NCBI GenBank assembly: GCA_963693095.2
Contig: OY843768.1
Coordinates: 320,001 to 384,000, forward strand
From: Cenarchaeum sp.
GTDB taxonomy: Archaea; Thermoproteota; Nitrososphaeria; Nitrososphaerales; Nitrosopumilaceae
Reading direction: 5' to 3'
DNA: 64,000 nucleotides
Part shown: in pieces, positions 17,068 to 64,000 of the stretch
How positions within the stretch are numbered: position 1 is the first letter of the stretch
How the letters are laid out: each line of letters opens with the position of its first letter
Program-made: the position numbers and the translations under genes
Notes under the pieces: generated by a model
The model's database searches: none
Seen by the model: the letters and a program-made list of their open reading frames with translations, nothing else
Told to the model about the DNA's origin: nothing

Positions 17068-17094
17068 CGTTTTCACCTTCAATTTCACGCCTAG

Positions 17095-17103: not shown

Positions 17104-17127
17104 CTATGATAACACCCGCGTGGCACA

Positions 17128-20100
17128 ATGCGTGGCGTGGTATGTGGCCTAGCGCTAGCGATCGCAGTGATCTGCATCGCTACGACGGCCGGAGACGTGA
17201 TGGCGCACACCTCTCCTGCCTTTCATGCGGTGAGGGCGTCTGGTGACGTCGGGGCAGTGGAGGACATCACGTGGAGGGGCGTCGCCTCCTCGGCCCTCTC
17301 GCACACCAACATTGGCCCCATCAACAACGCCGCCGAGTTTACGTCGCTGAGCGGCATAACTGGCGCCCTTGACCGCCTCGCGGCAGGCACTGCCCAGATA
17401 TCGCGAATCAGCTTTGATCCGGTGTTTACCACACATGCGACTGTGACGCCCACGCAGGACATATCAGAGTGGACGCTCATAGAGGGCAGTGCCGGCGACG
17501 TGAATGGCATGTGCGCCAGGGTGGGCAGCCAGGGGACACCCCGGGACATGCTCGGCGTCATTGCCGTGCGCGATGATGCGTCTGTCGTGTTTGTCCACGA
17601 GGCGCTCTCCACGACGGCCTCGCGCATGCACGCCATATACCACCCTGATGCCGCGCCGTCAGTTTCGGGAACGCAGCCCAGCTCGCGTGGCTGCGCGTAC
17701 CTTGCCGACGGCGTCTCGCCGTACATCGAGTCGGCCACGTTTACGGCCTCTAACATGATCAGTGTGACGTTCACAGAGACGGTGACCAGGAACGTGGGAA
17801 CAGGATCGATGGGCTGGTCGGTGAGCGGCCTGACCGTGTCAAACGTTGCCCACACCGGCACGACGTACACGCTCACCGTATCTGGCGCCACGTCTGGCAC
17901 GGCGTACACGATCAGCGCAGCCAATGGGATCGCCGACCTCGCCTCGCCGACGGCAAACGTGATCCGCAATGACGCCACGGCGACGGCGACATACACGGAC
18001 ACCACGCCGCCGACGTTCACGGCGCGCGTGTACAACGTCACACATGTCGCAGTAAAGTTCGACGAGCCCATACAGGGCACGACAATGGCCGCCGAGTGGG
18101 CAGTGGGCGTGATTGACGCCGACCAAACGACCCTGACTACGGCAGCGATAGCGACCACGGACGTGGGTGAGACAGATTCAACAAAGAGGTCGCGCGTCAC
18201 GATACCGCCTGACCCGCCGTTCACCGGCCTGCTGTATGTCGGGATTTTGAACTCCCTCGACCATAGTCTCAGGTGGGCGCTAACGGAGACCCCCATGGTG
18301 AGGTTTACGATGCCGTCTGGCGGGCTCTCCGACGTGGTGCCCGGCGGCACGGCCAACAGCCTGCAGACTGCAACCGTGGTCGCCTCCGCCAATGACGGAA
18401 CGGGCCCGACAGTCGCGTCTGCCGCGTTTACGGACGCCCGCACGATCACAGTCACGTTCAGCGAGGATGTCGTGTTCACCATGGCCCCTGCCGACCTGGT
18501 GCACGAGAGAAACTATGCGACAGACGACGGGTGGACGGTGACGTCGCCGAGGGGCAACCTGGCCGTGACGTCCGTCGCGCAAACTGCCACTAACGCGTAC
18601 GCGCTCACGCTGGGAGCCGACGCCGCCTTCGGCAGGGCGTACACGGTCACCCCCGACGCGCAAGTCAGTGACCTTAATGCCAATACCGTGCCCATCATAC
18701 CTCGTAGCGACCCCAGAGTCGCCATGCCATTCCCAGTGCAGGCCTACGACGGGCCGTTTGACGCCGAGACGAGGACGTCCACCACGACGCTCGTCACGTT
18801 TGCCGGCGGGAGCATCACCGCCACGCTCGACGTGGCCAACTGGGCAGTCGACGAGGCGGCCCCCGAGGCCGCCGCGAGCATTGCCATATCGAGCATCGCG
18901 ACGGTGACTGCCGACGGGACGGGCCAGGTCACCGCTACGCCGGTTGTCGGCTCGACGCCGGCAGTCACGCACGTGCTGGGATCCACGCCCGCAGTCACGT
19001 CGCTGCTTATCACGCACGAAGATCTCGACTCCACGGCCTCCACGCCCATAGTCACGTACACGCGCCCGGCGTCCGGCGGCCTGGTGGCCGGCACGACTGC
19101 CGTGCCGGCAGGCCCCGTTGACGCCGCAGACGGCGTTCCGCCCGAGCTTGACGACGGCGACTCGCTGAATATGCGAACAAGGGAGAACAGTCTGAGTCCA
19201 AGAATGCCAATTGCGCCGGCCGGCCTGAGCAGCGACGGCCCTGAAGGCGTGTGGGTGCGCATAAATCCCACCGAGCCTCTCTATGCGGCGGGCAGGCTCA
19301 TCCAAAATGACTTCGCTACCGGTGGCGCCGGCGACGCCGTTGCGCCCGCCGACATCAAGTTCTTCCCCGGCACGGACTCTGAGGTGACGGGTCAGCGCGC
19401 CGCAGACGCCGGTGATGGGAATTACAACTATTCGCACAGTGTCGTGGGTACATCGCCAGAGGGCCCCGTCACGTTCGAGCTCACGGTGCGCGACGCCGCC
19501 GGCAACGCCGCGACGTTCACGCACGATGACCTCACGACAGGGGCGACTGACGATAACGGCATCGCCATACCGAACGCGGGATACCGCGTGAGCATCGACA
19601 CGACCGCCCCCACGGTCATGTCCTCCGCGTTCACCGATACGGACGAGCTCACCATCACGTTTAGCGAGCACCTGGCGGCGCTTGATCCAGCAGCCGAATC
19701 GAAGTTTAGCGTGGTGGCGGTTCCGACAGACGTTAATATGTACCCCACAACGATCCCCGGCGGCACCGTGACCCTCACCGGCTCGGCCGTCTATGCCGAG
19801 CAGGCCACCACCTCGACAGTCACACTCATGCTGGCCTCGGCCTCGGCGCCCGGCACGGTTCACACGGTCCAGCTACCCGACAACATAGTCGATGACGCAC
19901 TCAACCGGCTCGCCGCTAGCGCTACGGCGAGCGCGAGTCGCACGGTATCGGACATGACGGCGCCGGTCGCAAGCTCGATAGCCTTCCGGGTGTACGACGG
20001 CACGCCGGACGCCGGCACGCTAAAGTCCGGCGACAGCAAGCTGCTCGCAAGCGACGGGGACACGATCCGCCTGATACTGACGCTCAACGAGGCCGCGGCC

Positions 20101-23100
20101 GGCACGCCGACGATAGAGGTGGTCGGCAGGACGCCGGCGGGGACCGCGATGGGCGACAACGGTGACGGTATGGACACGACGTGGCACCACGACCTGCTCG
20201 TGACGTCCTCCTCGGGCGAGGCGGCCTATACGTTCACGATCAAGGCCGCTGACGCGGCGAACAACATGGCGACCATAACGCGGACCGCCGGCCTAGACAC
20301 GGGAGTCACCGTCACCGTGCCGACCATAGACCTGACTGCGCCGACGCTCTCCTCGGCGGCCACGGCGACGACGGGCACGCTGACTGTCACGCTCTCCGAG
20401 GCAGTCACGGGAGCCGGCGTCATCGCCAAGTGGTCTGCAGAGGACGGCGCGACGGAGGCTGCGATCTCCAACGTCGACGTCTCGGGCAGCACGATAACGC
20501 TCACTTACGCGACGATCGACGACACGTCATTTGCGCCGACAGTCAAGTACACGGGCACGGGCCTGGCCGACTTGGCCGGCAACGCCATAACGCTTGATGC
20601 CACAACGTTAGATGCCACGGTAGCTGCCACTGACGCCCTGAGGCCGACGATAGCGCTCGTCACGTTTACGGCCTCCAACATGATCAGTGTGACGTTCACA
20701 GAGACGGTGACCAGGAACGTGGGAACAGGATCGATGGGCTGGTCAGTGAGCGGCCTGACCGTGTCAAAGGTTGAGCACACCGGCACGACGTACACGCTCA
20801 CCGTATCTGGCGCCACGTCTGGCACGTCGTACACGATCAGCGCAGCCAATGGGATCGCCGACCTCGTCTCGCCGACGGCAAACGTGATCCGCAATGACGC
20901 CATGGCGATGGTGATATACACGGACACCACGCCGCCAACGTTCAGCGCAAGCCTCACGTCTGCGAACACCGTGACGATCACGTTTGACGAGAATGTCAGC
21001 GGCACGACGGCGCCGGCCGAGTGGACCGTCGCCGGCTCGACAGTCAGCACGGTCGCGCCCTCCTCGCCGTCCTCAGTCGACGAGATCGTCCTCACGCTGT
21101 CGGCCTCGCGCGTGGGCACTGCACTGGCCGACCCGGACGGTGATGGCCCGCTCGAGGAGATCACGCAGGGAAGCGTGGTCTATACGCGCCCCGCGACCGA
21201 CTCGGCGACTGCGTCTAACACGCTTGCCGACGGCGTCGGCAACGACCTCGCCGCCGCCGGCAGGACGGCTGCGGCCACGGCAGTGACTGACGGCGCGCCA
21301 CCGACGGCCAGGGCGGCCTTTTTGGGCAGCGCGATCGTCATCCTGTTCAGCGAGCCGGTCAACGGCGTGCCGGGTACGCTGCAGGTCACGCAGCCGGGCG
21401 CGTCGGCCGGCCCGCTTGGGGCAGACCACGCCGACGGCACCGCCAGGGCGTCAGTCACGATCTCCTCGCCGTCTGCCGGCGAGTACTCTGTCGCGCTGCC
21501 CACGGGCATAGACGACGCCTCGGACAACGAGCTCGCCGCTGCCTCCGTGACTGCCACGTACGCGGCGGACACGACTGCGCCGACGTTCAGGGCCGAGCTG
21601 ACCTCGGCGGAGACCGTGAGGATCATCTTTGACGAGGCCGTCTTTGGCGTGACTGCCGGCTCCGAGTGGGCAGTCGCCGGCTCGAGCGTCAGCACTGCGG
21701 TGCCGTCCTCGCCCTTTGACGCCACAGAGATCGTCCTCACGCTAGACGACGCGGAGCGCCGCCCCTACACCAGCCTGGCCGACCCAGACGGTGCTGGCGA
21801 CCTGACTGCGATCACCGCGGCGAGCGTGGTCTATACGCGCCCGTCGACGGGTGATGACACGCTCCGGAACTCGGCGGAGCTCCGCCTTGCAGCCGCCGCC
21901 GGCGGCTCGACGGCTGCCACGGCCATCGCCGACAAGGCCCCGCCGACGTTCACGGCGCGCACGTTGACGACGGCGACGATAGCCGTCACGTTCAGCGAGA
22001 CGATACACAACACGGGTTCACACAGTAATCACACCCCCTACCGAGCCGTGGGGAACTGGGCCGTGGACGGCGCCCCGCCGAGCGGCCTGGCCGCGGCCAA
22101 CGTTACGCAGGGCGGCGCTACATACACGGTCTTTACGCTCACCGTGGCGACCCTTGGCGTGGACGACATGCCCACGGTCACCTATACCCGCCCCGCCTCC
22201 AGATACCTCGCCGACGCGGTGCAGGGTCAAGGTGCCCCTCAATTCGACAATGACAGGAACAACCCTGTCATGGACGGCGCGTCGGCGATCGCCGCCGACG
22301 GCATAGCCGCCACGGCTGGCCCCTTCACGGCCGCCACGAGGAGCCTCACTACGACGCTCGTGGAGTTTGACGGCGGCGCGCTGGCCGGCACGCTCGACGT
22401 GACGGACTGGACGGTCACCGACAACGACACCGGCTCGGCCGACGCGGAGCTGATTATATCGAGCGTGGCGACTGTGGTAGGGGACGGGCAGACGCCGGTC
22501 ACGGCTACGCCGGAGACCTCGGCGGGAGCAGGTGACGCGGTAACGCCGGCCATACCGTCGAGTCCTGCGTCCACGCAGCTCCTCATCACGCACGCGCCGC
22601 TCTCCTCGACGGCGGCCACGCCGCGCGTCGCGTACGCCGACGGCGATCTCAAGGAGGGCGGCACCGGCGGCTCTGACGTCGCCGACGGCGGCGCCGAGGC
22701 GACCGACGGCGTGCCGCCGCTGGCGACTGCGATGTCCTTCACGGTGTTCAACGGCCCCGCGTCCTTCGGCCATACAAAGTCCGGCGCCTCCGAGCTTCAC
22801 GCAAGGCTCACCGACACGGTTCGCATCCTGCTCACGCTCAACGAGGCGATCACCGCGAGGCCAGTCCTCACCGGGGGCGGTGTCTCGAGCGTCCAAATGA
22901 ACGCCGTTCCAGGGGACACCACCATGTGGACGTACGACCTGTCCGTGGGGGCAGCGACGCCCGAGGGCACGCTGGCGCTCTCGATATCGGTCACCGACGG
23001 CACGGCGACCGGCACGATAACGACGGCGTCAGGCATGGTGGCCGAGTCGGGCTTTGCGACCGGCAGCATGGCCGACGACCTGCCCGTCGTGGACAGGACT

Positions 23101-26100
23101 CCTCCGACGCTCCAGGACGCGGAGTTTGTGGGCAATGACATCGTCCTCACGCTCGACGAGGACGTCACGATCGCCGGCGGCATCGTGGTCACGCCGCCGT
23201 CTGGAAGCGTGGCGGTGTACGTGGCGACTGCGAGCGGCATGACTGTCACCGTCGAGGTCGGCGCTTCGGTGGAAGGGGGCTATCTCGTATATGTGCCGGC
23301 CACGATCCAAGACCTCGCCGGCAACGTGTTTGTGGCCGTGCAGAGGACGGTGCAGTACGTGACGCCGGACACCACGGCGCCGGTCGCAAGCTCGATAGCC
23401 TTCGAGGTGTACGACGGCACGCCGGATGCCGGCACGCTAAAGTCCGGCGACAGCGCGCTGCGCGCAAGCGACGGGGACACGATCCGCCTGATACTGACGC
23501 TCAACGAGGCCGCGGCCGGCACGCCGACGATAGAGGTGGACGGCCGGACGCCGGCGGGGACCGCGATGGGCGACAACGGCGACGCGCTGGCCACGACGTG
23601 GCACCACGACCTGCTCGTGACGTCCTCCTCGGGCGAGGCGGCCTTTACGTTCACGATCAAGGCCGCTGACGCGGCGAACAACATGGCGACCATAACGCGG
23701 ACCGCCGGCCTAGACACGGGAGTCACCGTCACCGTGCCGACCATAGACCTCACGGCACCCACGGCCACTGCGGAGTTCAGGGCAGTCAGAACGCTCGTCA
23801 TCATGCTCAGCGAGGCACTCGCCGGCACGGTATCGGCTATAGGGGGCTATACGTACGACGTGACGGTGCCAGACGCCGGCTCGGACGGCAACCCAGATGT
23901 CGTCCCCCTGAACAGCGCCATCCCGCCCGCCTATGACGCCACGGCCCGCACGATCACGCTCACGCTCGCCGGTGACGCCGCACCGTCCATCGTGCACACC
24001 GTCAAGCTGCCGGCACTGCTGGCCGACCTTGCAGGCAACGCGTTTGCCTCGCCGGCCGAGGTGACTGCGACGTACACGCCGCCGGCCACGCCTCCGCTCG
24101 CCACGTCAATATCGTTCAGGGTGTACGGCGACACTGACACCGGCGCCGACGACACGCTGGACCTCACGACGCTAAAGTCTGGCCCCACTGCGCTCATCGC
24201 CCGTGCAGGTGACACTATACGCCTCGCGCTCGAGCTCGACGAGGACCATCACGCCACGGCGCCGACAATAACGCTTGCCGGGAGGGGAGTCACGGGGGCG
24301 GCCATGGCAGACGCAGGCGATGACAGCCCGCGGACGTGGATATATGACCTGGCCGTGGCGCAGGGGACATCCGAGACCACAGCGCTTACGCCATTTGCAT
24401 TTTCGATCGCAGTCAGGGACATAGCGTCAGAGCCGAACACGATAACTGCGACGTCGGGACACGACGGCACGATTGCGGTGAGCCTTCCGACCATAGACCT
24501 GACCGGACCTGTGTTTGACGCCAACGCGCCCCCCGCGTTCACCATGGACGACAAAATAACGCTCACGTTCAACGAGGCCATTGATCCGGTGGAGGCAGTA
24601 AAGCCGACGAGGTACACCGTCACGTCAGGCGGCAGCAGCGTCGCGCTGTCGACTGCCACGCCGCCGTCGCACTCTGGAGGCCCGCCGGCGACGGTGGTCC
24701 TGACGCTGGCCACGCCTGCCACCGTGCCCGGCACCGAGTACACGGTCTCGACGACCGTTCCGGACATCGTTGGCAACGCCGCCTCGGCCACGGCCACGCC
24801 GACATATGCCGTGACGACACTGCTGTCGGCCAGGACGGCCTCCTCCACGCTAACGGTCGTCACGCTCTCGCACCCCGTGACGGGATCCGGCTCGCCGGGA
24901 TCATGGACGATCGACGGCAGCCTGGCCGGAGAGGAGCCGATGCCGGCCACGGGCATCGCCTCGGGTGCTGTCACGGGCGTCACGGCGGGCACCGCGGCGG
25001 TGCCGATAGCCTCCAACACGATCACGCTCCTCCACGGCGAGCTCTCGACGGCCTCGACGCCAAGGGTGACGTACGCGATGGGCACGGACACGCTCTCAGC
25101 GCCAGTCGGCCAGCTGGTGACAGACGCCACGGGAGTCACCGCCACAGACGGCGCGCCGCCGCGCGTGGTCGCCGCAGCGCTAGTCGACTCGCCGCTGGCC
25201 ACACAATCCAATCCTCGCCCCAAGGCAGTGGAGCTCACGTTCTCCGAGGCGGTGAACGCGCCGGCCGCATCGGCGTTTGCGCTATATACGGAGCCCACGG
25301 GCACGACGGCTGCCGCCTCGATCACCTCGGCGACGCGCTCCTCTCCTAGCGGCGGGGTGGCAAACTCTGTTCTCACCCTGGAGCGAGACGACGTTATCGC
25401 GAGCGTGCAGCCGCGCTACCTGCACATCTCCCCGACACTGCTGACGGACATGGCAATGGTGCCGGTGCCGTACGGCACTGCCCCGAGGATTCCGGTCTCA
25501 GAAGGCGCAACGACGCGGGTTGACTGGTGGATTGTCAGCCCTAGGCAAATAACGGTTCAGTTCCACGAGAGGCTAGACAACGATCCGCCGTTGGGTCCGG
25601 AGAGCTTTACAGTTCGAGTTTCCCGCGATGGGAGCAATGTCGTGCTGCCGTTTGCATCAACAAACCCCGTCATGTATGATGACGCCACGCGCACACTCAG
25701 GCTCATGATGGACGACGACCTTTCCTCCTCGGTTACCGTGCTCTACACCATAACAAAGCTTGGCAGCACGCCTTTCTCAGGCTCTCGCTTTCTCGCCTAC
25801 GAGCCACTATTTTCGGCAATGACCACTAGCGCCAACACGGCCAGGCTCACGCTTGCTACTGGTGCGAACTTCAGTGGGAACATGGCTGTCAGCGTGGCTG
25901 CCAGCGACTTTAGCGTCACTGAATCTGATGGCGCGACCTCAATTGCCGTCACCGGCATCTCTGCTGACGGTGTGAGCTTTTCGCCCTCGGCGACGCTCGA
26001 GCGCCCCCTTCGGAATTTTCACCTGCAATTCGACGCCGACCTTGCCTCGACTGCCTCGACTCCGGATGTGACATACACGCCTTCTGGGGATAGCGCCATC

Positions 26101-29100
26101 GCTAGAGACTTTCTCACACCTCCAACGTGGACGGCACCGGCATCAGACGGTGCGCCTCCGTCCATCGGGGACTCTGGGTTTATGGGTCCGACAAAGATAC
26201 GACTCGAGTTCACCGAGGCCCTTGATCAGGTCGAGGCCGTAAAGCCGACAAACTATGCCGTCACGTCAGGGGGCAGCCCAGTTGCGCTTGATGCCGCCAC
26301 GCCGCCGTCGTATGCCGACGGCCCGCCGGCGAGCGTCACGCTGACCCTTGATGATGACGCCGTGGACGGTACAGTGTACACGGTCACGCCGTCACGGAGC
26401 ATCACTGATGTCAACTCTGTCGCGTACGGGGGCAGTGGGGAGGACGTGACATACACGCCCACGCCGCCGCTCGCCACGTCAATATCGTTCAGGGTGTATG
26501 GTGACACCGACACTGGCGCCGGCGACACGCTGAACCTCTCGACGCTAAAGTCTGGCGACAGTGCGCTCATCGCCCGTGCAGGCGACACCATACGCCTCGC
26601 GCTCGAGCTCAGCGAGGACCACCGCGCCACGGCACCGACAATAACGCTTGCCGGAAGGGGAGTCACGGGGGCGGCCATGGCAGACGCAGGCGATGACAGC
26701 CCACGGACGTGGATATATGACCTGGCCGTGGCGCGGGGTTCCGCCGAGACCACAGAGTCCGCACCGTTTGCCTTTTCGATCGTCGCCACGGATGCCACAT
26801 CAGAGACTAGCACAATAACTGCGACGTCAGGACACGACGGCACGATAGCGGTGAGCCTGCCGACCATAGACCTGACCGGACCCATGTTTGATGCCAACGT
26901 GCCCCCAATGTTCAGCACGGACGACAAAATAACACTCACGTTCACCGAGGCCATTGATCCGGTGGAGGCAGTAAATCCGGCGAGATACACCATCGCGTCA
27001 GGAGGCAGCAGCGTTGCGCTGTCGACTGCCACGCCGCCGTCGCACTCTGGAGGCCCGCCGGCGACGGTGGTCCTGACGCTGGCCACGCCGGCCACCGTGT
27101 CGGGCACAGAGTACACCGTGTTGACGACCGTTCCGGACACCGTTGGCAACATCGCCTCGGTCACGTCCACGCTGACATATGGCGTGCCGACACTGCTGTC
27201 GGCCAGGACGGCCTCCTCCACGCTAACAGTCGTCACGCTCTCGCAACCCGTGATGGGATCCGGCGCGCCGGGATCATGGACGATCGACGGCAGCCTGGCC
27301 GGCGAGGAGCCGATGCCGGCCACGGGCATCGCCTCGGGCACAGTCACGGGCGTCACGGCGGGCACCGCGGCGGTGCCCATAACCTCCAACAGGATCACGC
27401 TCCTCCACGGCGAGCTCTCAACGGCCTCGACGCCAAAGGTGACGTACGCGAGGGGCACGGACACGCTCTCCGCGCCGGCCGGCCCTCTTGCGACAGACTC
27501 CACGGGAGTCACCGCCGTAGACGGCGCGCCGCCGCGCGTCACCTCTGCGGCGCTAGTCGACTCGCCACTGGCCACGCCCTCCAGTCCGCGCCCCAAGTCA
27601 GTGGAGCTCACGTTCTCCGAGGCGGTGAACGCGCCGCCCGCATCGGCGTTTGCGCTATATGCGGCGCCCACGGGCACGACGGCTGCCGCCTCGATCACCT
27701 CAGTCGCACGCTCATCTCCTAGCGGCGGGGTGGCAAACTCTGTCCTCACGCTAGAGCGAGACGCCGTGGTGCAAAGCACGCAGCCGCGCTACCTGCACAT
27801 CTCTGCGACACTGCTGACGGACAAGGCAACGGTGCCGGTGCCCTACGGCGTTGTCCCGAGGATTCCGGTCTCTGAAGGCCTGCCGACGCTGGCCAACTCG
27901 TGGATTTCAGGCCCCAGGCACATATCGCTCCAGTTCAACGAGCGTCTGGACAACGATCCGCCGATGGCTCCCGGCAGCTTTACGGTCACCACCGCCAGTG
28001 ACATGCCAACGCCCATATCGCTTGCCCCAACAGACCCCGTCGCGTATGATGACGCCACGCGCACAGTCAGGCTCACGCTGGCCAATGACCTCTCTGGCTC
28101 GTCACTAATTGTCACCCCCGCTGTCACAAAGCTTGGAAGCGCGGGCAGCTATTCCACTTCGCGCACGATCAGCGGATACACGCTGCTCTTTTCGGCCACG
28201 ACCACTAGCGTCAACACAGTCATGCTCACGCTTGCCAGTGGCCTGGGCGGAAGCGTGGCTGCCGGCGAGTTTGGGGCCATTGACGCCGGTGGCGCTGCCC
28301 TGATTGCGGCCAACGGCGTGTCCACTGACGGCATAACATTTGCCGGCTCTACGCAGCTCTCGGGCACGACGCTTCACCTGCGGCTAGGCTCCGACCTTGC
28401 CTCGACTGGCTCGACTCCCGAGGTGACGTACACGGCCCCGTCATCTGCGGGCATCACTGCCTTGACTAGCATACCGATAACGTGGACGGCCGTGGCGTCT
28501 GACGGCGTGCCTCCATCCATCGAGAACTCTAGGTTTATGGGCCCGACAAAGATACGCCTCGAGTTCAACGAGGCCCTTGATCCGCTGCAGGCGGTAAATC
28601 CGGCGAGATACACCGTCACGTCAGGGGGCAGCCCAGTTGCGCTGGATGCCGCCACGCCGCCGTCGTACGCCGACGGCCCGCCGGCGAGCGTCACGCTGAC
28701 CCTGCCCGGCAACGCCGTGGACGGGACGGTGTACACGGTCACGCCGTCACAGAGCCTCACTGATGCCAACTCTGTCGCGTACGGGGGCAGTGGGGAGGAC
28801 GTGACGTACACGGCCATGCCGCCGCTCGCCACGTCAATATCCTTCAGGGTGTACGGCGACACCGACACGGACGGCGCTGGCACGGCCGACACGCTGGACC
28901 TCTCGACGCTAAAGTCTGGCGCCACTGCGCTCATCGCCAGTGCGGGTGACACCATACGCCTCGCGCTCGAGCTCGACGAGGACCACCATGCCACGGCGCC
29001 GACAATAACGCTTGCCGGAAGGGGAGTCACTGGGGCGGCCATGGCAGACGCAGGCGATGACAACCCGCGGACGTGGATATATGACCTGGCCGTGGCGCAG

Positions 29101-32100
29101 GGTTCCGTCGAGACCACAGATTCCGCACCGTTTGACTTTTCGATCGTCGCCACGGATGTCACATCCGAGACTAGCACAATAACTGCGACATCGGGGCACG
29201 ACGGCACGATATCGGTGAGCCTGCCGACCATAGACCTGACCGGACCTGTGTTTGACGCCAACGCGCCCCCCGCGTTCACCATGGACGACAAAATAACACT
29301 CACGTTCAACGAGGCCATTGATCCGGCAGAGGCAGTAAAGCCGGCGAGGTACACCGTCACGTCCGGCGGCAGCAGCGTTGCGCTGTCGACTGCCACGCCG
29401 CCGTCGCACTCTGGCGGCCCGCCGGCGACGGTGGTCCTCACGCTGGCCACGCCGGCCACCGTGCCCGGCACCGTGTACACGGTCTCGACGACCGTTCCGG
29501 ACATCGTTGGCAACGCCGCCTCGGCCACGGCCACGCTGACATATGGATTGCCGACGATACTGTCGGCCAGGACGGCCTCCCCCACGCTAACGGTCGTCAC
29601 GCTCTCGCAACCCGTGACGGGATCCGGCTCGCCGGGTTCATGGACGATCGACGGCAGCATTGCCGGAGAGGAGCCGATGTCGGCCACGGGCATCGCCCCA
29701 GGCGAAGTCACGAGCGTCACGGCGGGCACCGCGGCGGTGCCCATAGCCTCCAACAGGATAACGCTCCTCCACGGCGAGCTCTCGGCGGCCTCGACGCCAA
29801 AGGTGACGTACGCGAGGGGCACGGACACGCTCTCCACGCCAGTCGGTCCGCTGGCGACAGACGCCACGGGAGTCACTGCCGTTGACGGCACGCCGCCGCG
29901 CGTCGTCGCCGCAGCGCTAGTCGACTCGCCGCTGGCCACGCCCTCCAATCCGCGCCCCAAGGCAGTGGAGCTCACGTTCTCCGAGGCGGTGAACGCACCG
30001 GCAGCATCGGCGTTTGCGATGTACACAGAGCCCACGGGCACGACGGCTGCCGCCTCGATCACCTCGGTGACGCGCTCCTCTCCTAGCGGCGGGGTGGCAA
30101 ACTCTGTCCTCACGCTAGAGCGGGACGCCGTTGTCGAGAGCGCGCAGCCGCGCTACCTGCACATCTCCCCGACACTTTTGACGGACAGGGCAACGGTGCC
30201 GGTGCCCTACGGCACTGTCCCGAGGATTCCGGTCTCTGAAGGCCTGCCGACGCTGGCCCACTCGTGGATCTCTGGCATCAGGCAAATATCGCTCCAGTTC
30301 AACGAGCGGCTGGACAGCGATCCGCCGTTGGGTCCGGAGAGCTTTAGGGTTGTAATTTCCCGTGCGGGCATTGTCGAACTGCCGCTTGCCTCGACAAGTC
30401 CCGTTATGTATGACGACGCCACGCGCACAGTCAGGCTCGTGATGGCCGAAGACATTCCCCAGCAGACAACTAGGGTGTATCCCGCCGTGGCCAAGCTTGG
30501 CAGCACGGGGACTTTCTCAGACTTTACCCAGATCCCACCTACCTCATTTCTCTTCTCGGCCACTACCACTAGCGTCAGCACAGTCAGGCTCCTGATGGAA
30601 GGCAGCCTGGACGGGAGCGTGGCTGCCGGCGAGTTTAGCGTCACTGACTCTGGTGGCGCTACTCCAATCGCCGTCAGCGGCGTCTCCTCTGACGGTGTGA
30701 ACTTTTTCTCCTCCGCGGCGAGCTCCAACAAGTTTGTTTACCTGCAACTCAGATCAGACCTTGCCTCAACTGGCTCGACTCCGGATGCGACATACACGCA
30801 TTCTGTGGATACCGCCCTCACTAGCCAGATCGCCATACCTAGAACGTGGACGGCAACGGCATCAGACGGCGTGCCTCCATCCATCGAGAACTCTGAGTTT
30901 CTGAGCCCAAAAAAGATACGCCTCGAGTTCACCGAGGCCCTTGATCAGGTCGAGGCCGTAAAGCCGGCAAACTATGCCGTCACGTCCGGCGGCAGCCCAG
31001 TTGCGCTGGATGGCTCCACGCCGCCGTCGTATGCCGACGGCCCGCCGGCGAGCGTCACGCTGACCCTGGCCAACAACGCCGTGGGCGGGACGCTGCACAC
31101 GGTCACGCCGTCACGGAGCATCACTGATGCCAACTCTATCGCGTACGGCGGCGATGGCGTGGACGCAACGTCCCCCGTGACAGACGCGATTGCCCCTACG
31201 GCCACTGTAGAGTTCACCGAGGCTGACACGATAGTGATCAAGCTGTCTGAGGCGCTGTCCAACACGCGCTCTGACATAGAGGGCTATACGTATACCGTGA
31301 TGAGGGGGAGCACCACAGTCGCGCTGGCCACGGCTGATCTGTCGGCCACGCCGCAGGTAAGGCCAGTCGTTTACAATGCGGCCGAGCGCACGATCACGCT
31401 CACGCTGGCCGACGCCGCGACTCCTGACGTGTTCCATGTCGTGACGCTGCCGTCGAGCCTGACTGACCTGGCAGGCAACGCGCTTGCGATGTCCAGGGTC
31501 TCTGTGATATATGCCACGCCGTACCCGCTCGCCACGTCAATATTGTTCAGGGTGTACGACGACACTGACATGGGAGCCGGCGACACGCTGGACCTCATGA
31601 CGCTAAGGTCCGGCGCGCTAGTTGCGGGTGCGGGCGACACGATACGCCTTGTGCTCACGCTAAACGAGAATCACCATTCTGATGCGCCGAGGATAACGCT
31701 GGCCGGAAGGGGCGTCACCAACGAGGCGATGGACAACGCAGGCGATAGTGACGCGAGGACGTGGATATACGATCTCGCAGTGACGGAGACGACTGTTGCC
31801 ACCTCAACGTCCGCACCATTCGAATTTTCGATCGCAGTGCAGGATGACGACACGATGCCCAACATGGGCACGATAACAGAATCCACCGGCCATGCCGGCA
31901 CGATGCGCATAGACCTGCCGACCATAGACCTGACCGGACCGGAGCTTGACGCCGATGCGCCAGCGGTGTTCACCACGGCCAGCGCCATAACGCTCACATT
32001 CAACGAGGCCCTTGATCCGACGGAGGCAGTAAAGCCGGAGAGATACACCGTCACGTCAGGCGGCAGCAGCGTCGCGCTGTCGACTGCCACGCCGCCGTTG

Positions 32101-35100
32101 TATGCTGATGGCCCGCCGGTGACGGTGGTCCTCACGCTGGCCACGCCAGCAAGCGTGGCCGGCACCGAGTACGCAGTCTCGACTACCGTTCCTGACGCCG
32201 TTGGCAACGCCGCCTCGGCCTCTGTCACGCTGCCATTCGCCCTGCCGACGATACTGTCGGCCCAGACGGCCTCATCCACGATAACGGTAGTCACGCTCTC
32301 GCATCGCGTGACGGGATCCAGCGCGCCGGGAGACTGGACGGTCGATGGCAGCATGGCCGGAGAGGAGCCGATGGATGCCACGGGAATCGCCTCGGGTGCG
32401 GTCACGAGCGTCACGGCAGGCACCACGGCGGTGTCCATCGACTCGAACCAGATCACGCTCCTCCACGGCCCCCTGTCGACGGCCTCGACGCCAAAGGTGA
32501 CATACGAGAGGGGCACTGCAATGATCTCCACGCCGGCCGGCCCGCTGGCGACGGACTCTACTGGTGTCACCGCCGCTGACGGCGCGCCGCCGCTCGTCGC
32601 CTCGGCCATCTTTGTGGATTCGGACACGGTGAGGCTCACCTTTACAGAGGCCGTCAACGTGCCGCCGGCGTCGGCGTTTGCGCTTTACCCTGCTGCCACC
32701 GGCGGAACCGCGGCGTTCTCGGGGACGGGAACGCCGGTGCGCTCCTCGCCTGCCGGCGGAGCCGCCAACTCGGTCATCACGATTGACTTGACGCCGGCCG
32801 TGTCAGGCTCGCAGGTGCGCCATCTTGGGATCACCGGCGCAGTCACGGACCAGGCCACGCCGCCATTGCCATACGGCAGCGCCGACAGGATCCCCATCGC
32901 GTACAACCCACCGACGCTTGCCGACTCGTGGGTTTCAGGCCCCAGGCACGTGTCACTCGAGTTCGGCGAGCGGCTCAACAATGACCCGCCGCTGGCCTCC
33001 GCCGACTTTGTGGTGACCGCCGGTGATCCTGCCGTCGCGCTGTCGCTCGCATCCACAGACCCCGTCGCGTATGATGACGCCACGCGCACAGTCAGGCTCA
33101 CGCTGGAGGACGACCTCACGGGCTCGGCATTCTCGGTAACCCCTGTAGTCACCAGGCTTGACGGCACTGCGCTCTATTCCACTGCACACACGTTTAGCGG
33201 CTATACGCTGCTCTTTTCGGCTAGCACCCGCACCACTGCGGCCATGGTGCTCACGCTGCCCAGTGGCCTGGCAGGCTCCGTGGCCGCCGCCGATCTTGCC
33301 GTCACCGACGCCGCTGACACTACATCCAGGACGATCCAGGTGTCATCTGATGACTCGACCTATGGCTCGACGGCAACGCTGTCTGGCACGGCACTCTACA
33401 TCCTGCTCAGTCCAGCCCTTGCCTCAACTGGCTCGACTCCAGAGGTGACGTACACGGCTCCGTCACCTGCGGGCATCACCGCCTCGACTAGCATACCGAG
33501 AACATGGACGGTCATGGCGTCTGACGGCGTGGCGCCCACAATAGCAACTGCCGCGTTTAGTGCCGTGGACAAGATACGCATCAACTTTAGCGAGGCCCTT
33601 GATCGGACCGAGGCAGTAAAGCCAGCAAACTATGTCGTCAGGTTGGGCACCACCACAACGACCGTTGCGCTGGATGCCGACACGCCGCCGTCGTATGCCG
33701 ACGGCCCGCCGGCGAGCGTCACGCTGACCCTTGATGAGGACGCCGTGGACGGGACAACGTACAGGGTCACGCCCCAATCCGCGCTCACCGATGCCAGCTC
33801 TGTCGCATACGGCATAGGCGGTTCGGTGGACGTGACTTACGACACACCGGATTTCGCCGCCCCCGTGGCAAACTCGATAGTGTTCAGGGTGTACGCCGAC
33901 ACTGACACGGACGGCGCCGGCACGGACGACACGCTGGATGAGACCACGCTAAAGTCCGGCACCGGCGCGCTGCTCGCAAAGGCTGATGACACGATACGCC
34001 TAGAGCTCACGCTTGACGAGGATCACAATATCATCCCGCCGACGATAACGCTGGCCGGCAGGGGCATCACCGACGCGCCGATGGTGATTGCCGGCTCCGT
34101 CGGCAGGTCAATGTGGATCTACGACCTGATCGTGACGGATACCACTGTGGACACGGCGTCTGCGCCGTTTGCCTTTGAGATAGCCGTGAGGGATGACGAG
34201 ACAGTGCCCAACACGGGCACGATAACAGGGTCCATGGGCATAGTCGACGGTTTCACCGTCGAGTTTCCCACAATAGACACAACAGAGCCAACTGCCACTG
34301 CAGAGTTCACCGAGGCCGACACGATAGTGCTCACGCTGTCTGAGGCGCTGTCCAACACGCGCTCTGACATAGAGGGCTATACGTATACCGTGATGAGGGG
34401 GATCACCACAGTCGCGCTGGCCACGGCTGACTTGTCGGCCGACACGCCGGTAAGGCCAGTCGTCTACGATGCGGCCGAGCGCACGATCACGCTCACGCTG
34501 GCCGCCAACACGGTTCGGGGTGTGCCACACTCGGTGTCGCTGCCCTCCGCGCTGGCCGACGTTGTGGGCAACACGGTCTCGCAGGCCTCGGTGAGTGTGA
34601 CACTGCCCCAGTTTGCGGTGTTGACACAGACCCAGACGACGACACTCGTCACGTTCTATGAGGGCGTGCTAGGCGGCACGCTGGCCACGGCGGACTGGAC
34701 AGTAACGGATAACGACACGGACGGCGCCGACGTAGAGCTGACTATAGCGAGCATAAGCACCATGGTTGAGACGGGAAGTGTCACGGCGACACCGGAGACT
34801 GCGGCCGGAGCCAATAATGCAGTCGAGCCGATAGTGCAGTCAACCCCCGCTGTCACAAAGCTAGTCGTCACGCACGAGCCGCTCTCCTCGACTGCGGCCA
34901 CGCCGGCCGTCTCGTACATGCCCGGAGCGCTGACCGTGGCCAGCACCCCCGTGAGCCTCAACAACGTCGAGGCTGCCGACGGCGCGCCGCCGACGTTCAC
35001 GGCGCGCACGGTCACGACGACGACGATCGACGTCACGTTCAGCGAGCCGATACGCAACACGCTTAGTGGCGAAGTCCTGAAGGCGGACAGCTGGACGGTG

Positions 35101-38100
35101 AACGGCGCCATGCCGGGTGTGCCCAGCGCTGCCAACTTTACGCGGGCCGGCCTCCTGACGGAACAAGTCGACGAGGCATACACGGTCTTTACGCTCACAG
35201 TCGGCACTCCCTTTGGCGTGGACGCCACGCCCACTGTCGCCTATGTTCGCCCCAACTCGAACTACCTCGCCGACGCGCTGGTGGAAGGCGGTGGCGACCC
35301 TGACGGGAACAACCCTGTTCCGAACGGCGCGTCGACGATCGCCGCCGACGGCATAGCCGGCTCTGCGCCCCCGTTCGAGGCCTCGACTGCCAGCCTAACG
35401 ACGACGCTCGTCGACTTTGACGGCGTGCTGGCCGGCACGCTTGACGTGGACGACTGGACGGTCACCGAGAACGACGCGGCCAGCGCCGCGGACAACGTGG
35501 CGCTGGACATATCGCGCATTGCGACTGTGTTCAGCGGCGTCGCGTTGTCGACTGTGGCGACGCCGGCCGTGCCGGGCGGCGCGTCGGCACAGACGCCGAC
35601 GATCCCGCCAAGCCCGGCCGTCATGCAGCTCCTCATCACGCACGATCCGCTCTCCTCGCCGGCTGCCACGCCGGCCGTTGCGTACGTGGCCGGCGGCCTG
35701 ACCGAGGGCGGCACCGCCGTCGACAGCGGCGGCGCGGAGGCCTCTGACGGCGTGCCCCCGGCGTTCAGTGCGGAGCTCACGGCGGTGGGCACGGTGAGGA
35801 TCGTGTTCACCGAGCCGGTCACCGGCGCGACGATGGCCTCGGAGTGGGCGTTTGACGGCGCGTCGGACGGCAAGCTGTTGGATCGCCGCCTCGGCATGGC
35901 CGTGTCGACGGACGTCGATCTGCGCAACGCCGAGGAGCTCCTCATCACGCTCGCCTCCCCGCGCGCGCGCACGGACCTGGGCGACGGCGCCGGCGGCACA
36001 CTGGACGCCGGTGACATCACGTACACCCCCCGCGCCACGGGCGCGCTGGCCGACGCCGCGCTCAACGGGTTTGGCACGGCCGGCTCGCCCGTCGAGGCCA
36101 CGGCGCTGGCCGACAGGGCGCAGCCGACATTTAGCGCCGTGATCACCTCGCAGACCTCGATAACGGCGACCTTTAGGGAGCCCGTGACTAGCGAGTTGGC
36201 GTCCGAGGTGCCGGGCGGCTGGCTTGTGGAAGGGGGCGCCGAGAACCCTGTGATCCTCTCGGTCGCCTTTGACGACGACGACACGTACACGATCACGCTC
36301 TTGGCCACGGACACTAACCCTGGCGCGATCCTTGGCACGGAGTATGACATCACCGCGAGCGACAGTATCTATGACCTTGCCTCCCCGACGCCCAACAAGA
36401 TCGTGGACGGCACCGAGGCGACGGCGACGTACGCGCCGCCGACGTTCACGGCGACGCTCGACTCGCCGACGTCAGTCACCGTCACGTTCCCGGAGGCGCT
36501 CAACGGCAGCACGTCGCGCACGGAGTGGAGCGTCGCCGGCGAGACGCCCGAGTCCGTCACGGTGGGCACGGCCACGACGTCCGACGACAGCGCGATCACG
36601 ATAGCGCCGACAGTCTCCACGATCACGTTCACGCTCGCGTCTGTCAACGCGCAGGCCGCCGACGCGGCGCCGCCGGTGGCGTACACGCCCGCCGCCGGCG
36701 CGCTGCTCGACTCTGACGACGTCGCCATGCTACCGACGGGCGACAGCCCAGTCACGGCCGCCGACATGATCGACCCGTCCATCGAGTCGGTCCTGTTCAT
36801 GAACGCCATGAAGATATTCGTGGAGTTCACCGAGCCGGTGACAGGTGACACGTCGGAGGCGAGCGGAATCGGCTGGTCGGTGAGCGGGGGCCTCATGATA
36901 TCGACCGTGACATTTGAAGGCGACGACACGTACACAATCGACCTCTCGTCACCGGGCGCCACGGTCAGCACAGGATACACGATAGGCGCAGCCGACGGGA
37001 TAGCCGACAGGTCCCCGGCGGCCAACTCCGTGGCCGTCGGCGAGGCCGTGACGGAGGAGTACACGGGGCCGGACACCGACCCGCCGACATTCAGCGCAAG
37101 CCTCACGTCGGAGAGGGTGGTAAAGATCACCTTTAGTGAGGACGTCGACGGCACGACGGCTAGCGGCGAGTGGGCAGTCACCGGCTCGACTGTCGCGTCG
37201 CTCTCGCTTACGGACGGCGGGGCCGCCGCGGCCGGCGACCTGGTGCTCGACGACGTGGGCGAGCTCTTTATCACGCTCACCGCCGCGCGCGCGGGCACCG
37301 ACCTGGGCGGCCTGACCGCGGCGGGCGTCACGTACACGCGCCCGTCGACGGGCACCAACACGATCCAGGACGGCGTGGACAATCACCTTGCCTCGACGGC
37401 AGGCGACACGGAGGAGGCCACGGCGCTGGCCGACGGGATCCCGCCGACGTTCCGCGCCGAGCTCACCTCGGCGACCACGGCAAGGATAGAGTTCACCGAG
37501 GCCACCGGCGGCATGACGGCGGCCTCCGAGTGGGCGTTTGCCGACTCTGATGTCGAGTCGCTCTCGCTGACGGCCGACGGGACATTTACGATGGGCAACC
37601 TCGCGCTCTCCGGCACCAATCTCTTTGCCACCTTTGAGAGGGCCCGCACGTTGACTAGCCTGACAAACGGCGACGGCAACGGTGATGGCACCGTCGTGGC
37701 CGTCACGCGGGATGTCGTGACGTACACGCGCCCGTCGACGGGCCCCAACACGATCACGGACACCACGGGCAACGACCTGGCCGAGGACGCCGGCGACGAG
37801 GAGATGGCCACGGCCGTCGCCGACAGGGCACCGCCGACGTTCACGGCGCGCACGGCCACGGCGTCGACGGTCGACGTCACGTTCAGCGAGGCGATACACA
37901 ACTCGGGGGATCCAGAGAGCAAGGGTATGCGCTGGGAGAACGAGGCTCACTGGAGGGTGGACAGTGCCATGCCGACCGAGGTCATGGCGGCCAACTTTAC
38001 GCAGGCAGGCGCCCCGATAGGGGGCGGCGGTGCATACACGGTCTATACGCTCACCGTGGCGACCTTTGGCGCAGACGCCACGCCGTCGATCCTCTACGTG

Positions 38101-59100: not shown

Positions 59101-62100
59101 GTCGTCCACACCGTCACGCTGCCGACGGAGCTGCGCGACAGGGCCGAAAACGCGTTCACCACGAGCGCAGATGACGCGACGTACAGCCCGCCAGAGGCGT
59201 CTTCGCTCGCGTTCACCGTGAGGGCCGGCTCGCCGATCGCAGACAAGTCCGGCACGTACGCCAACGTGGCAGGCATCGGCAACACGATACGCATAACCCT
59301 CGGCCTCGACGCTGCCGTGACTGCGGCGCCGCAAATAACGCTGGACGGCAGGGACACGGAGTCGGTGGCCATGACCGCAGGCGCCGCCATGACGTGGAGC
59401 CACGACCACGTCGTGGACGCAACGCACGACAGCACCACGACCTCGGCCCCGCTGGACATCCTCATCGTAGCCACCGGCGCCAACGGCAACGTCGCCAGGA
59501 TAACGAACGAGGACGGCCTGGCCTCGGGCACGACAGTCACGCTGCCCGAGATCGACACGGCACGGCCGGCCCTCTCCACGGGCAACGCGCTGGTGACTGG
59601 CATCCAGTCGGCCACGCCAGGAACGCTCACGCTCAGCACTGCCGGCGTTGATGACATACTCGTAGTCAGGGTCTTTCCCACCGAGAGGCTCGTCGGCGAC
59701 GACCTCGAGGACGTCATGAACGCAGCAAGCCACTCCGACCCCGCGGCCTCGAGGATCAACCGCGACATGGCCTTCTATGCCAGCGCCACGGCGGCAAACC
59801 ACGGCTTTGAGCGGAGCACCTCGCCGTTCCAGTACGACTTTACGCGCCTCGTCGCTGACGGCGTGGACGCCGCCGGACCGGTCACGTTCTCGCTGACCAT
59901 GCGCGACGTCGCCGGCAACACGGCAACAGTCACGCACACAGACCTCGCGACAGTCATGGCACGTGACACGACGCCTGCTGACGCCGACGTCTGGGGCTAT
60001 CGCGCAACAGTCGACTCGAGCGTGCCCAGCATGACCTCGGCTGTCACGGCCTCAACGGGCGAGCTCACAGTCACGCTTTCTGAGTCGCTCCCGTCCTCGG
60101 CCGACACTGCCGTAGGCGACTGGACCGCCATCGACGCGACGCTGGAGCCTGACGTGACGGCCATGATCCTCACCGCAGACGTCTCGGGCAGCACGGTGAC
60201 GATCACGTACAGGACAGTCGAGGACACGTCATTTGCGCCGGTCCTCACGTACACGGGCGCGGGACTCGCCGACGCCGGCCGCAACGCCGTGCCCTCTGGC
60301 GCGCAGGTCACCGCCACTGACGGCGTCGCGCCGACGGCCATGGCGACCTTCCTGGGCAGCACGCTCACGATCACGTTCAGCGAGCCGGTCAACGGCGTGT
60401 CTGACACGCCGCTAACGCTCACCAGGCCAAACGGCAGCACGATCAGGCAGGCGTTCACGCACGACGATGGCGATCGCACGGCGACGCTGAGGATGCCCTC
60501 AACGCCGGCGACAGGCACGTGGGGCATCGCCATACCGGCGGCTGTCACCGACGTGACGGGCAACGCGCGCGACGTGGACTCGGCGAACATCTCTGCTGAT
60601 GCGTCTATCGCGCCGATGGCGACTGCGATATCGTACACGGTCTTTGAGCCCGGCGGCACGACACCGCGCGCCTCGCCGTACACAAACTATGCGCGCGCTG
60701 ACGACGTGATCGAGGTCTCCGTCACGCTCGACGAGTCCGTCAGCGGGACGCCGACGATCCTCTTTGTGGGTCAGACGGCAAGCCCCACACCGATGACACG
60801 CGTCGGCATGACTGACGAGTGGACCGCGCGGTACACCGTCGAGGCCGGCATGACGGACATTGGATTCACCTTTGTAATGTCAGTCACCGGCGCGGTGAGC
60901 GGCGCGATGGGCGAGATACGTGACACGACGCTCCCTGCTGTGACGCCACCCGCAATAGACCGCACGGTGCCGAAGATCTCGGCGCAGACGGCCGGCCTCG
61001 ACGAGGTCACCGTGTCCTTTAGCGAGGACGTGTCGGGAACCACAGGGGCCACCGAGTGGACAGTCGGAGGCACTGCTGCCGAGAGCATCACCTCTGACGG
61101 CTCGGCGCAGACTGGCGACCTGGCGCTCTCGGATGAGCGCACGATCGCACTCGGCCTCTCGCAGGCCGGCGAGCTCGTCGGCGGCGAGGCGAGGCCCGCA
61201 GTCGCATTCACGGCCCGCACGCCGCCGGCCCTCCATGACGTCGCAGGCAACCCGCTTGAAACCGCCTCGACCACGGCAATAGACCGCATACGCCCGAGCC
61301 TCGTCTCCATGGAGTTCACGGCGCCCAACATGATCACAGTCACGCTGAGTGAGCCCCTTGACGCCAACACGCTGGGCACGACCATCCCGCAGGCCAGCCT
61401 TAGCCCGCACCTCGGGGGAATCACGGTCAACTATGCGATCGGCGCCGAGTCGCTCACGCTGAGAACCGTCAACAGTGCGGCCGAGCGCGCAAGCCACTCG
61501 CTCACGCTGCCCGCGCGCGTGACTGACGTGGCCAACCCCGCCGGCGTGTCGCGCAACGCCATCTCGCAGGCCGCAGTGGCCGCCACGCTGCCGGACACCA
61601 CGCCGCCCACGTACACGGCGCGCACGTACAACGCCTCGCACGTCATCGTGACGTTCAGCGAGCCAGTCCAGGGCACGACGGCGGCCTCCGAGTGGACACT
61701 TGACGTGCCGACATCTGACCTGGTGACGCCAGATGGCGCAGGGCGGGCCGTAAACGCGGTGGCTGACGTGCCTCGCCCGCCCGAGGCAGATAGGCTCGAT
61801 GACACGATCGACGCGTCATCTGCGTTCACCGGCCCGCTCTATGTCGGCCACAAGGATCCCGTTGTTAACACATTCCCCGTCTGGGAACCGGACGCCACGC
61901 CGAACGTGAGGTTCACGATGCCGTCAAACGGCCTCACCGACGTGGCTCCGCCCGGCGGCACGGCCAACGCGCTGGAGACGACTGCCACCGTGACGGCCAG
62001 CGACGGCATTGCGCCCACGGTGACCTTTGCCGTCTTTGTGACGACGACTGAGGTTCACGTCACGTTCAGCGAGGACGTCACCGTCGAGGAGGGCGGCGTC

Positions 62101-64000: not shown

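Follow-up and report, generated by a model that had tools for sequence, protein, structure and literature searches.

The giant gene and its host

The subject of this analysis is a giant gene of a Cenarchaeum-type archaeon. The window, meaning the whole stretch of 64,000 nucleotides (nt) that was analysed, covers positions 320001–384000 of contig C1 in the source genome (G000). A preliminary description of this DNA had proposed that a frame +1 open reading frame (ORF) of more than 46.8 kb fills 73% of the window and encodes a giant secreted protein of immunoglobulin (Ig)-like repeats. The ORF is borne out: it runs from position 17128 to the window end (17128..63999, forward strand; 15,624 aa), where its 3′ side is open, and it occupies 73% of the window. 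It is absent from the ORF track because it is listed only when open-ended frames are included. Many minus-strand and off-frame ORFs of 300–912 aa lie inside it, and these are the antisense and off-frame shadows that had been recognised. Extension past the window, which the description had called for, reaches a TGA stop codon that ends at C1:385490, 1,490 nt beyond the window end. The complete gene measures 48,363 nt and encodes 16,120 aa (16,125 aa from stop to stop).

The giant ORF is a genuine, intact gene, and a frame that stays open over 48 kb is no chance product. Full translation meets no in-frame stop, and the other five frames contain 137–938. Simulated random divergence of the gene introduces ~10 stops at 1% change and ~92 at 10%. 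The GC content at third codon positions (GC3) is 0.81, next to 0.80 for the neighbouring aconitase gene and 0.78 for the gene of an Lhr-type helicase. The longest exact internal repeat of the whole ORF spans 105 nt. Parts of the first 10 kb turn up in eight sequencing runs from five studies; the share of sampled words present is 72–81% in four runs of one study and 47% in a single run of another. Across window positions 17001–37000, exact-match contig pieces fall in all 30 bins in three runs from two studies. This contig coverage places the giant sequence in several samples; the order of its repeats is not thereby established.

The source genome comprises 2,003,945 bp in two contigs (60.4% GC) and carries an archaeal small-subunit (SSU) rRNA (1457.6 bits) and an archaeal AmoA (389 bits). 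Relatives of the C-terminal region of the giant protein occur in a metagenome-assembled genome (MAG) of Cenarchaeum sp., in Thaumarchaeota archaeon S13, and in Nitrosarchaeum sp. By these sequence markers, the host is a Cenarchaeum-type ammonia-oxidising archaeon (Nitrosopumilaceae) and not a haloarchaeon. The named relatives of the genome are sponge-associated MAGs.

Composition and N-terminus of the protein

The encoded protein has a mass of 1.64 MDa and an isoelectric point (pI) of 4.05. Thr (15.3%), Ala (14.3%), Val (8.6%), Ser (8.6%), Gly (8.3%), and Asp (7.9%) are abundant, and Lys (0.6%) and Cys (0.09%, 14 residues) are scarce. The 1,888 Asp and Glu residues against 651 Lys and Arg residues give a net charge of ~−1,240. 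The computed composition and pI match the acidic, Thr/Ala/Val-rich, and Lys/Cys-poor character first described. N-x-S/T sequons number only 38 in 16,120 aa despite 24% Ser plus Thr and 427 Asn. This count lies below compositional expectation (a rough estimate, not computed) and may reflect avoidance of N-glycosylation sites.

The start codon is the first in-frame start after the upstream stop. It opens a predicted signal peptide (17128..17205, forward strand; residues 1–26) with a hydrophobic core at residues 1–19 and a predicted V-M-A cleavage site. The core is the sole hydrophobic window in the 16,120 aa, and the N-termini of paralogues carry similar signals that end in A-x-A-type sites. The signal peptide proposed earlier is supported by this paralogue-like hydrophobic segment. 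Next follows an N-terminal domain (17230..17784, forward strand; residues ~35–219) that contains Cys129 and Cys189. It matches no Pfam or NCBIfam family and is weakly Ig-like, as matches to one de novo hidden Markov model (HMM), F1, score 25.3 and 46.9. Seven further copies at 44–53% identity were found in the genome by tblastn, at the N-termini of paralogues and inside them. Because of these copies, the region is a family domain. The short Cys-containing domain of the preliminary description therefore exists, and its supposed uniqueness does not hold.

The array of Ig-like modules

An array of ~132 detectable modules, composed of Big_5-type Ig-like units of ~95 aa and a 59-aa unit, extends over 17224..63705 on the forward strand. 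Iterative HMMs built within the protein tile residues ~33–15,526 with 132–133 modules of ~55–125 aa, which cover 11,351–11,357 of the 16,120 residues. The 34 inter-module gaps of 50–245 aa suggest that the true number is nearer 150–165, and the total of tandem Big_5-type modules is perhaps about 130–165. The consensus of the Big_5-like unit ends in D.AGN. Of the five de novo module families, three are one ~95-aa unit read in different registers, another represents a half-unit variant, and the last is the distinct 59-aa unit.

For the Pfam scan, the protein was divided into 17 pieces (16 of ~1,000 aa or less and the last 496 aa). Big_5 (PF13205) exceeds its gathering score (23.6 bits) in 12 of them, at 24.8–53.4 bits, and CopC exceeds its cut-off in four. 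SWM_repeat (PF13753) passes its cut-off of 27 in a single 1,000-aa piece (55.1 bits) and stays below it in four others (18–22.9 bits); its matches overlap those of Big_5 and CopC on the same stretches. All three are Ig-like beta-sandwich families. Three pieces have no Pfam match. The module HMMs and the suggested Pfam check agree with the claim of on the order of 100 or more beta-rich modules in one giant secreted protein. The claim of a limited set of module families gives way to mostly one Big_5-type unit in different registers plus one 59-aa unit. The large gaps, searched against Pfam at E≤1 together with the first 264 aa of the C-terminal region, match only the LtfC beta-sandwich (E=0.66). 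RTX-type GGxGxD motifs occur four times in the 16,120 aa, none of them clustered, and DxDxD occurs 11 times; no RTX family appeared in the Pfam scans of the 17 pieces.

Internal similarity indicates that the array was generated by nested segmental duplication. Four tandem superrepeats of ~790 aa (24103..33840, forward strand) share 60–78% amino acid identity with the first copy, are 80–89% identical as DNA, and have ratios of nonsynonymous to synonymous substitution rates (dN/dS) of 0.56–0.58. Larger blocks of 1.4–1.7 kaa recur 3,241 and 6,082 residues downstream with 69–72% identity. Internal duplicates as a whole show DNA identities of 74–95%, dS of 0.24–0.69, and dN/dS of 0.50–0.83, and no stop has arisen in them. 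These values point to weak purifying selection on the sequence with strict maintenance of the frame. A search for homologues of the 791-aa superrepeat returned no protein of 435–1,385 aa at E≤1e-10. The AlphaFold model of one superrepeat, built from five sequences, has a mean predicted local distance difference test (pLDDT) score of 47.9; its Big_5-like parts reach 60–83 and are all-beta.

The C-terminal module

The conserved C-terminal region (residues 15,527–16,120) begins at position 63706 and continues to the window end (63706..64000, forward strand), with 1,487 further coding nt up to C1:385487. Its core beta-sandwich with four conserved Cys residues and its helical tail fall just past the window end. 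These last 594 aa match none of the module HMMs and no Pfam or NCBIfam family (NCBIfam, 0 families at E≤0.1). Among 1.84 billion representatives, a full HMMER scan with the region reaches 623 clusters at E≤1e-3, of which 156 also pass E≤1e-30. The nearest relatives match the full 594 aa and are proteins of 687–6,000 aa. Most others share the core (query residues ~250–440) and are proteins of ~400–700 aa.

Among the 150 best relatives, 95 have an N-terminal hydrophobic segment and two have a C-terminal one. The strict CxxC.PP[TS].G motif is present in 44 of the 150, at a median of 325 aa from the C-terminus. The passengers N-terminal to the module vary and include an NHL propeller, LVIVD, and Big_5. 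In an alignment of 70 sequences, C256 and C259 are nearly invariant and C378 and C386 fully invariant; in the giant protein these four are Cys 15782, 15785, 15904, and 15912. The blocks NGFSYNG and W.NYYNHG are also invariant or nearly so. The giant protein shares the features of this family, namely the C-terminal module of ~330 aa, CxxC.PPTLG, the second Cys pair, a W.NYYNHG-type block, and an N-terminal signal. These sequence comparisons define an unnamed family whose members, hundreds of thaumarchaeal secreted proteins, end in the module. One constant module behind otherwise variable secreted passengers is what an anchoring or sorting device would lead one to expect. A lectin-like tip is an alternative role.

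AlphaFold2 models the C-terminal region with a mean pLDDT of 81, rising above 90 for residues ~260–440, and with long helices at 521–540 and 561–592. The core is confidently predicted to be a V-set-like beta-sandwich. Foldseek against the PDB returned generic antibody and Ig matches only. By sequence, the best PDB match of the C-terminal profile is to mite allergens (E of 0.4), and a 1,400-aa piece finds nothing at E≤0.01, although the Nitrosopumilus surface-layer (S-layer) entry was not confirmed among the PDB sequences searched. In the ESM Atlas, the one match is an unnamed cluster at 0.75, which is under the lead threshold. Complex prediction with two copies of residues 245–594 of the region scored 0.00, a value that speaks neither for nor against self-association. 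An archaeosortase/exosortase-type substrate (PGF-CTERM, PEFG-CTERM) was considered and rejected, as there is no hydrophobic window beyond residues 1–19 and NCBIfam, which contains such sorting-domain models, yields no family for the last 594 aa.

Paralogues and turnover of the family

A module-bearing ORF is here a stop-to-stop frame no shorter than 300 aa in which the module HMMs cover 150 residues or more. The source genome has 18, totalling 118,672 codons, 356 kb, and 17.8% of the genome. Seven ORFs reach at least 5,000 aa (24,633; 16,166; 16,125, the giant studied here; 14,652; 11,156; 6,067; and 5,268), so the giant is not the longest ORF of its genome. The C-terminal region has nine copies in this genome.

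The family survey sampled 81 genomes from 27 genera, labelled here where needed as G012, G019, G061, and G071. Four genomes, including the closed 1.6-Mb congener genome G012, are classed as the same genus. The C-terminal module occurs at E≤1e-20 in 20 of the 81 genomes and 10 of the 27 genera. Frames of at least 5,000 aa that carry it were found in four genomes: the source genome, G012 (25,697 aa), G061 (up to 9,068 aa), and G019 (up to 8,617 aa). G061 (2.3 Mb) has 16 matches to the module, and G019 has four frames of 5,130–8,617 aa. Since both belong to other genera, the family has also expanded outside the Cenarchaeum genus.

At the syntenic site of G012, the aconitase (93% amino acid identity) and redoxin genes lie ~2.8 kb apart, compared with 51 kb in the source genome. 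Homology detected by blastn ends at C1:336992, 136 nt before the ATG of the giant gene, and resumes at C1:385243 within its last 82 codons. In G012, a remnant of the C-terminal tail (the last ~80 codons) is still recognisable, though frameshifted. The common ancestor therefore had a family member at this site, of which G012 has lost everything except the end. The 25,697-aa gene of G012 was considered as an orthologue of the giant and rejected, because its flanks gave 0 tblastx hits; it is instead the orthologue of the 24,633-aa paralogue. These comparisons indicate that the repertoire of module genes turns over quickly.

Two further loci of the family carry possible frameshifts. At C1:1247710–1324529 (minus strand), the 24,633-aa ORF overlaps by 268 nt the next ORF, of 1,061 aa, which bears a C-terminal module. 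Against the 25,697-aa frame of G012, it has 95.7% nucleotide identity over 1,186 nt, and the only gap is one G missing in the source genome. The two ORFs are therefore one gene of ~25.6 kaa, broken either by a 1-nt deletion or by an assembly error. At C1:515953–608168 (plus strand), the 16,166-aa and 14,652-aa ORFs overlap by 244 nt in different frames, and the overlap contains no homopolymer of at least 6 nt. The 14,652-aa ORF has no signal peptide of its own at the first ATG and ends in a C-terminal module. The two may form one gene of ~30.7 kaa with a frameshift.

Promoters and poly-G tracts

Upstream of the giant gene, a TATA-like box, TTATATAC (17097..17104, forward strand), lies 23 nt before the ATG, a distance from which we infer a leaderless or near-leaderless mRNA. 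Three paralogues, at C1:493170, 766200, and 776010, have an identical TTATATAC at that 23-nt distance from the ATG, and TTATATAG precedes the 16,166-aa paralogue. A poly-G tract, G14 (17054..17067, coding strand, plus), lies 29 nt upstream of the box and is a candidate hypermutable promoter repeat. Five other module genes have the same order of tract, TATA-like box, and ATG, with tracts of G21, G14, G16, G18, and G18. Three of their boxes are exactly 23 nt before the ATG and one is ~22–23 nt before it; the 24,633-aa gene has a weaker TATA-like sequence. The distance from tract to box among module genes is 28–50 nt.

Of the 15 G/C runs of at least 10 nt in the source genome, six stand ahead of module genes, where it is invariably the coding strand that reads poly-G. 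Ten runs reach at least 13 nt, where well under one would be expected from base composition (an estimate, not computed). Runs of G12–G18 that do not precede module genes lie at C1:16806–16823, 780478–780490, 813399–813410, 1328123–1328135, and 1959854–1959868; the G13 run at C1:1328123 has a positional counterpart of G16 in G012 with conserved flanks. At matching sites with conserved flanks, tract lengths in the source genome and G012 are 16/19, 18/17, 18/19, and 13/16. The giant studied has no G012 orthologue for such a comparison. A pattern of at least G12, a gap of 25–52 nt, and TTATATA occurs in five of the 81 genomes; the reversed-pattern control gives 0 matches in 80 of the 81 (including the source genome and G012) and six in G071. 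As a hint only, one contig of run X2 spans the tract of the giant gene with two extra letters somewhere in 17001–17781, and a contig of run X1 starts just after the tract.

A tract with conserved position and varying length is what hypermutable contingency repeats look like. Phase variation through the poly-G tract is thus a candidate mechanism for this family.

Neighbouring genes

The genes that flank the giant are ordinary ones. Within the window, those upstream encode CbiD, MetK, the Lhr-type helicase, a DUF4344 metallopeptidase-like protein, and aconitase. Beyond the giant gene lie genes for a redoxin and a class-I tRNA synthetase. A tRNA gene at 16781..16935 (minus strand; Rfam tRNA, 40.8 bits) carries an insertion of ~80–90 nt in the anticodon loop, of the archaeal intron type. 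It is the last conserved feature before the break in synteny with G012 at window position 16992. ARAGORN in bacterial mode reported no tRNA in the window and missed this intron-bearing gene. The S-adenosylmethionine synthetase at window 2299–3474 (minus strand) is of the bacterial/eukaryotic MetK type (Pfam S-AdoMet_synt_N/M/C) and not of the type usual in archaea. A 986-aa ORF at window 9683–12643 (plus strand) has an N-terminal DUF4344 putative metallopeptidase domain. Window 8001–12000 has a GC content of 0.55–0.57, compared with 0.60–0.65 around it, and this lower-GC stretch with the DUF4344 ORF may be a foreign or island segment.

Function of the giant protein

The giant protein is probably a long polyanionic cell-surface fibre through which a Cenarchaeum-type ammonia oxidiser interacts with a host or matrix. 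Transcription would start from the TATA box 23 nt before the ATG, with expression perhaps switched or tuned by the poly-G tract that lies another 29 nt upstream. The chain would be exported by the Sec pathway and its signal peptide cleaved. The module array would then form an extended polyanionic fibre of ~0.5–0.7 μm, if each Ig-like module adds ~4 nm. This fibre would be held non-covalently on the cell envelope by the shared C-terminal module and would mediate attachment to the extracellular matrix of the host (a sponge), or recognition or camouflage within it. The preliminary description had suggested a filament of several hundred nm for host or matrix interaction; the long surface filament is plausible, whereas the adhesin or spacer role stays conjectural.

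Several observations weigh against this proposal. Neither hydrophobicity nor the Pfam and NCBIfam scans point to a membrane anchor, a sorting signal, or a wall-binding domain of a known kind, and retention on the cell is supposed solely from the module's constant place at the C-terminus. Matches to the fold of the C-terminal region are generic, to V-set/CBM/PKD-like beta-sandwiches with Z≤8.4, a common level (VIA-align). Given the poor model of the superrepeat, the rod-like geometry is an assumption, and a dN/dS of 0.5–0.83 means weak constraint on module sequence. The congener has deleted its copy, so the gene is dispensable at least there. The presumed sponge habitat derives from the names of relatives. 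Run contigs reach at most 864 nt among those listed, and their joints (sides of 19–59 nt) resemble cross-joins between repeats; as the contigs bridge no repeats, they lend no independent support to the exact number of modules. No RNA run is among the runs listed, and no transcript or peptide evidence was obtained.

It is doubtful that the protein is instead released or forms a loose coat, a polyanionic brush or matrix with a physico-chemical role, such as ammonium concentration or a protective sheath, and not specific adhesion. The net charge of ~−1,240, the pI of 4.05, the lack of a detected anchor or sorting signal, and the ammonia-oxidising metabolism of the organism would all suit such a brush, and acidic S-layer proteins (pI 3.4–4.9) have been tied to ammonium concentration in the part of the literature considered (Moeller et al., 2019, citing Li et al., 2018; PMC6790972). 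However, a brush leaves the constant C-terminal module on diverse passengers unexplained. It also fails to account for rapid turnover, paralogue diversity, and the variable promoter tract; conservation is what one would expect of a housekeeping cation trap. The absence of sequence similarity to any solved structure, in the PDB searches with a 1,400-aa piece and the C-terminal profile, counts against it as well.

It is unlikely that the fibres serve primarily as a variable shield or decoy against host phagocytosis or viruses, with the repertoire providing antigenic or receptor variation and adhesion being secondary. Much of the evidence on turnover could be read in this way: 18 paralogues under weak constraint (dN/dS 0.5–0.83), loss of the giant copy in the congener, a 1-nt frameshift in the largest paralogue, and poly-G tracts of differing length at six promoters. 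Escape from digestion by altering the surface is discussed in the portion of the sponge-symbiont literature consulted (PMC7848895). Against these points, there is no direct evidence of switching within a population; the explanation overlaps heavily with the host- or matrix-binding fibre, from which sequence cannot separate it.

It is very improbable that inflated or mis-joined repeats in the assembly account for part of the length, or that the ORF is an unexpressed relic in decay. Such readings could draw on the strongly repetitive nature of the gene, on short-read contigs that are interrupted all along it with repeat-type false joints, on the 1-nt frameshift of the largest paralogue relative to its G012 orthologue, and on the lack of any RNA run among those listed. 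Against them, the repeats are only 74–95% identical as DNA with no exact repeat above 105 nt, the frame is open for 48 kb where 1% random change would bring ~10 stops, the promoter-like box, start codon, and signal peptide are as in the paralogues, and the related closed genome has a frame of 25,697 aa.

Relation to known systems

Bacterial adhesins of the SiiE, LapA, and MpIBP type are megadalton acidic proteins whose tandem Ig-like domains form extended arrays that stand out from the cell surface and serve in attachment. They leave the cell by type 1 secretion, carry RTX nonapeptide repeats and an N-terminal retention module, and have linkers rigidified by Ca2+. The protein encoded here resembles them as a megadalton acidic tandem Ig array with an inferred place at the cell surface. 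It differs in its N-terminal Sec-type signal, its four GGxGxD motifs, its archaeal envelope, and its different C-terminal module. Assignment as an RTX/type-1-secreted adhesin was rejected on the unclustered GGxGxD motifs, the N-terminal hydrophobic signal, the absence of RTX families from the Pfam scans, and the archaeal host.

SwmB of marine Synechococcus is a repetitive cell-surface protein of more than 10,000 aa that is linked to swimming motility and is the source of SWM_repeat. The likeness to it lies in giant repetitive design and in the one 1,000-aa piece with 55.1 bits against SWM_repeat. Unlike the bacterial, motility-linked SwmB, the giant carries a C-terminal module that SwmB does not share, and its other four SWM_repeat matches are below the cut-off. 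Halomucin of Haloquadratum walsbyi is a secreted archaeal protein of very large size that is believed to form a coat around the cell. The likeness drawn here is one of size, and halomucin comes from another phylum and habitat; the protein studied here is longer and consists of Big_5-type modules and the thaumarchaeal C-terminal module. The halomucin benchmark of the preliminary description was misplaced, and a haloarchaeal reading is ruled out on taxonomy by the archaeal SSU rRNA, AmoA, and the Cenarchaeum and Thaumarchaeota relatives.

Bacterial contingency loci, as in Neisseria, Haemophilus, and Campylobacter, have homopolymeric tracts in or near the promoters of surface-protein genes. The tracts described above are similar in that poly-G stands by the promoters of surface-protein genes, with conserved position and with length that varies between orthologues or recent paralogues. 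In contrast to the bacterial loci, the promoter is of the archaeal TATA type, and the tract lies 28–50 nt upstream of the TATA box, not between promoter elements or in the coding region. A survey of the subject, in the part considered here, treats coding-region tracts only (PMC2831843).

The sponge symbionts Ca. N. ianthellae and Ca. C. symbiosum have expanded sets of acidic putative S-layer proteins (pI 3.4–4.9), for which adhesion within the sponge matrix has been suggested in the sections considered (Moeller et al., 2019; PMC6790972). The giant is likewise acidic and comes from the same family of archaea. For those proteins, nothing near 16,120 aa is mentioned in those sections, and the PDB searches with a 1,400-aa piece of the giant and the C-terminal profile found no similarity to any solved structure. 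In a 2024 UniProt survey, as far as considered, no archaeal proteome has more than seven proteins of 5,000 aa or longer, and SGL/Lactonase domains are noted for Thaumarchaeota (PMC11573180). Archaeal proteins above 10,000 aa are on record, few and mostly from Asgard archaea, according to the available text of a preprint (bioRxiv 10.1101/2023.11.21.568195). The portions considered of these two sources make no mention of Cenarchaeum or Thaumarchaeota giants of the Big_5-array type. The literature searched contains no description of giant Cenarchaeum proteins; supplementary lists were outside the search, and a prior mention there is possible.

Significance for the family

Giant tandem-Ig surface proteins are already known, so the gene itself adds no new principle; what is new lies in the poly-G promoters and in the C-terminal module, an uncharacterised one. 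For an archaeon the scale is out of the ordinary, with a 16,120-aa protein and siblings of 24,633, 16,166, 14,652, and 11,156 aa in a 2.0-Mb genome, about a sixth of which is devoted to one protein family. The C-terminal module is widespread in ammonia-oxidising archaea and is a candidate attachment device for an envelope that consists only of a membrane and an S-layer. Rapid gain and loss of the genes is as would be expected of host-interaction factors in one of the oldest animal–microbe symbioses.

A broader idea, of low probability, is that Cenarchaeum-type archaea switch or tune a repertoire of giant-fibre genes (in this genome 18, taking up 17.8% of it; individual proteins reach 16,000–25,000 aa) through hypermutable poly-G tracts upstream of leaderless TATA promoters. 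Such an archaeal contingency-locus system might vary the cell surface towards host or viruses, with the C-terminal module fixing all passengers to the S-layer-only envelope. The poly-G promoter tracts offer a directly testable hypothesis of phase variation in Archaea.

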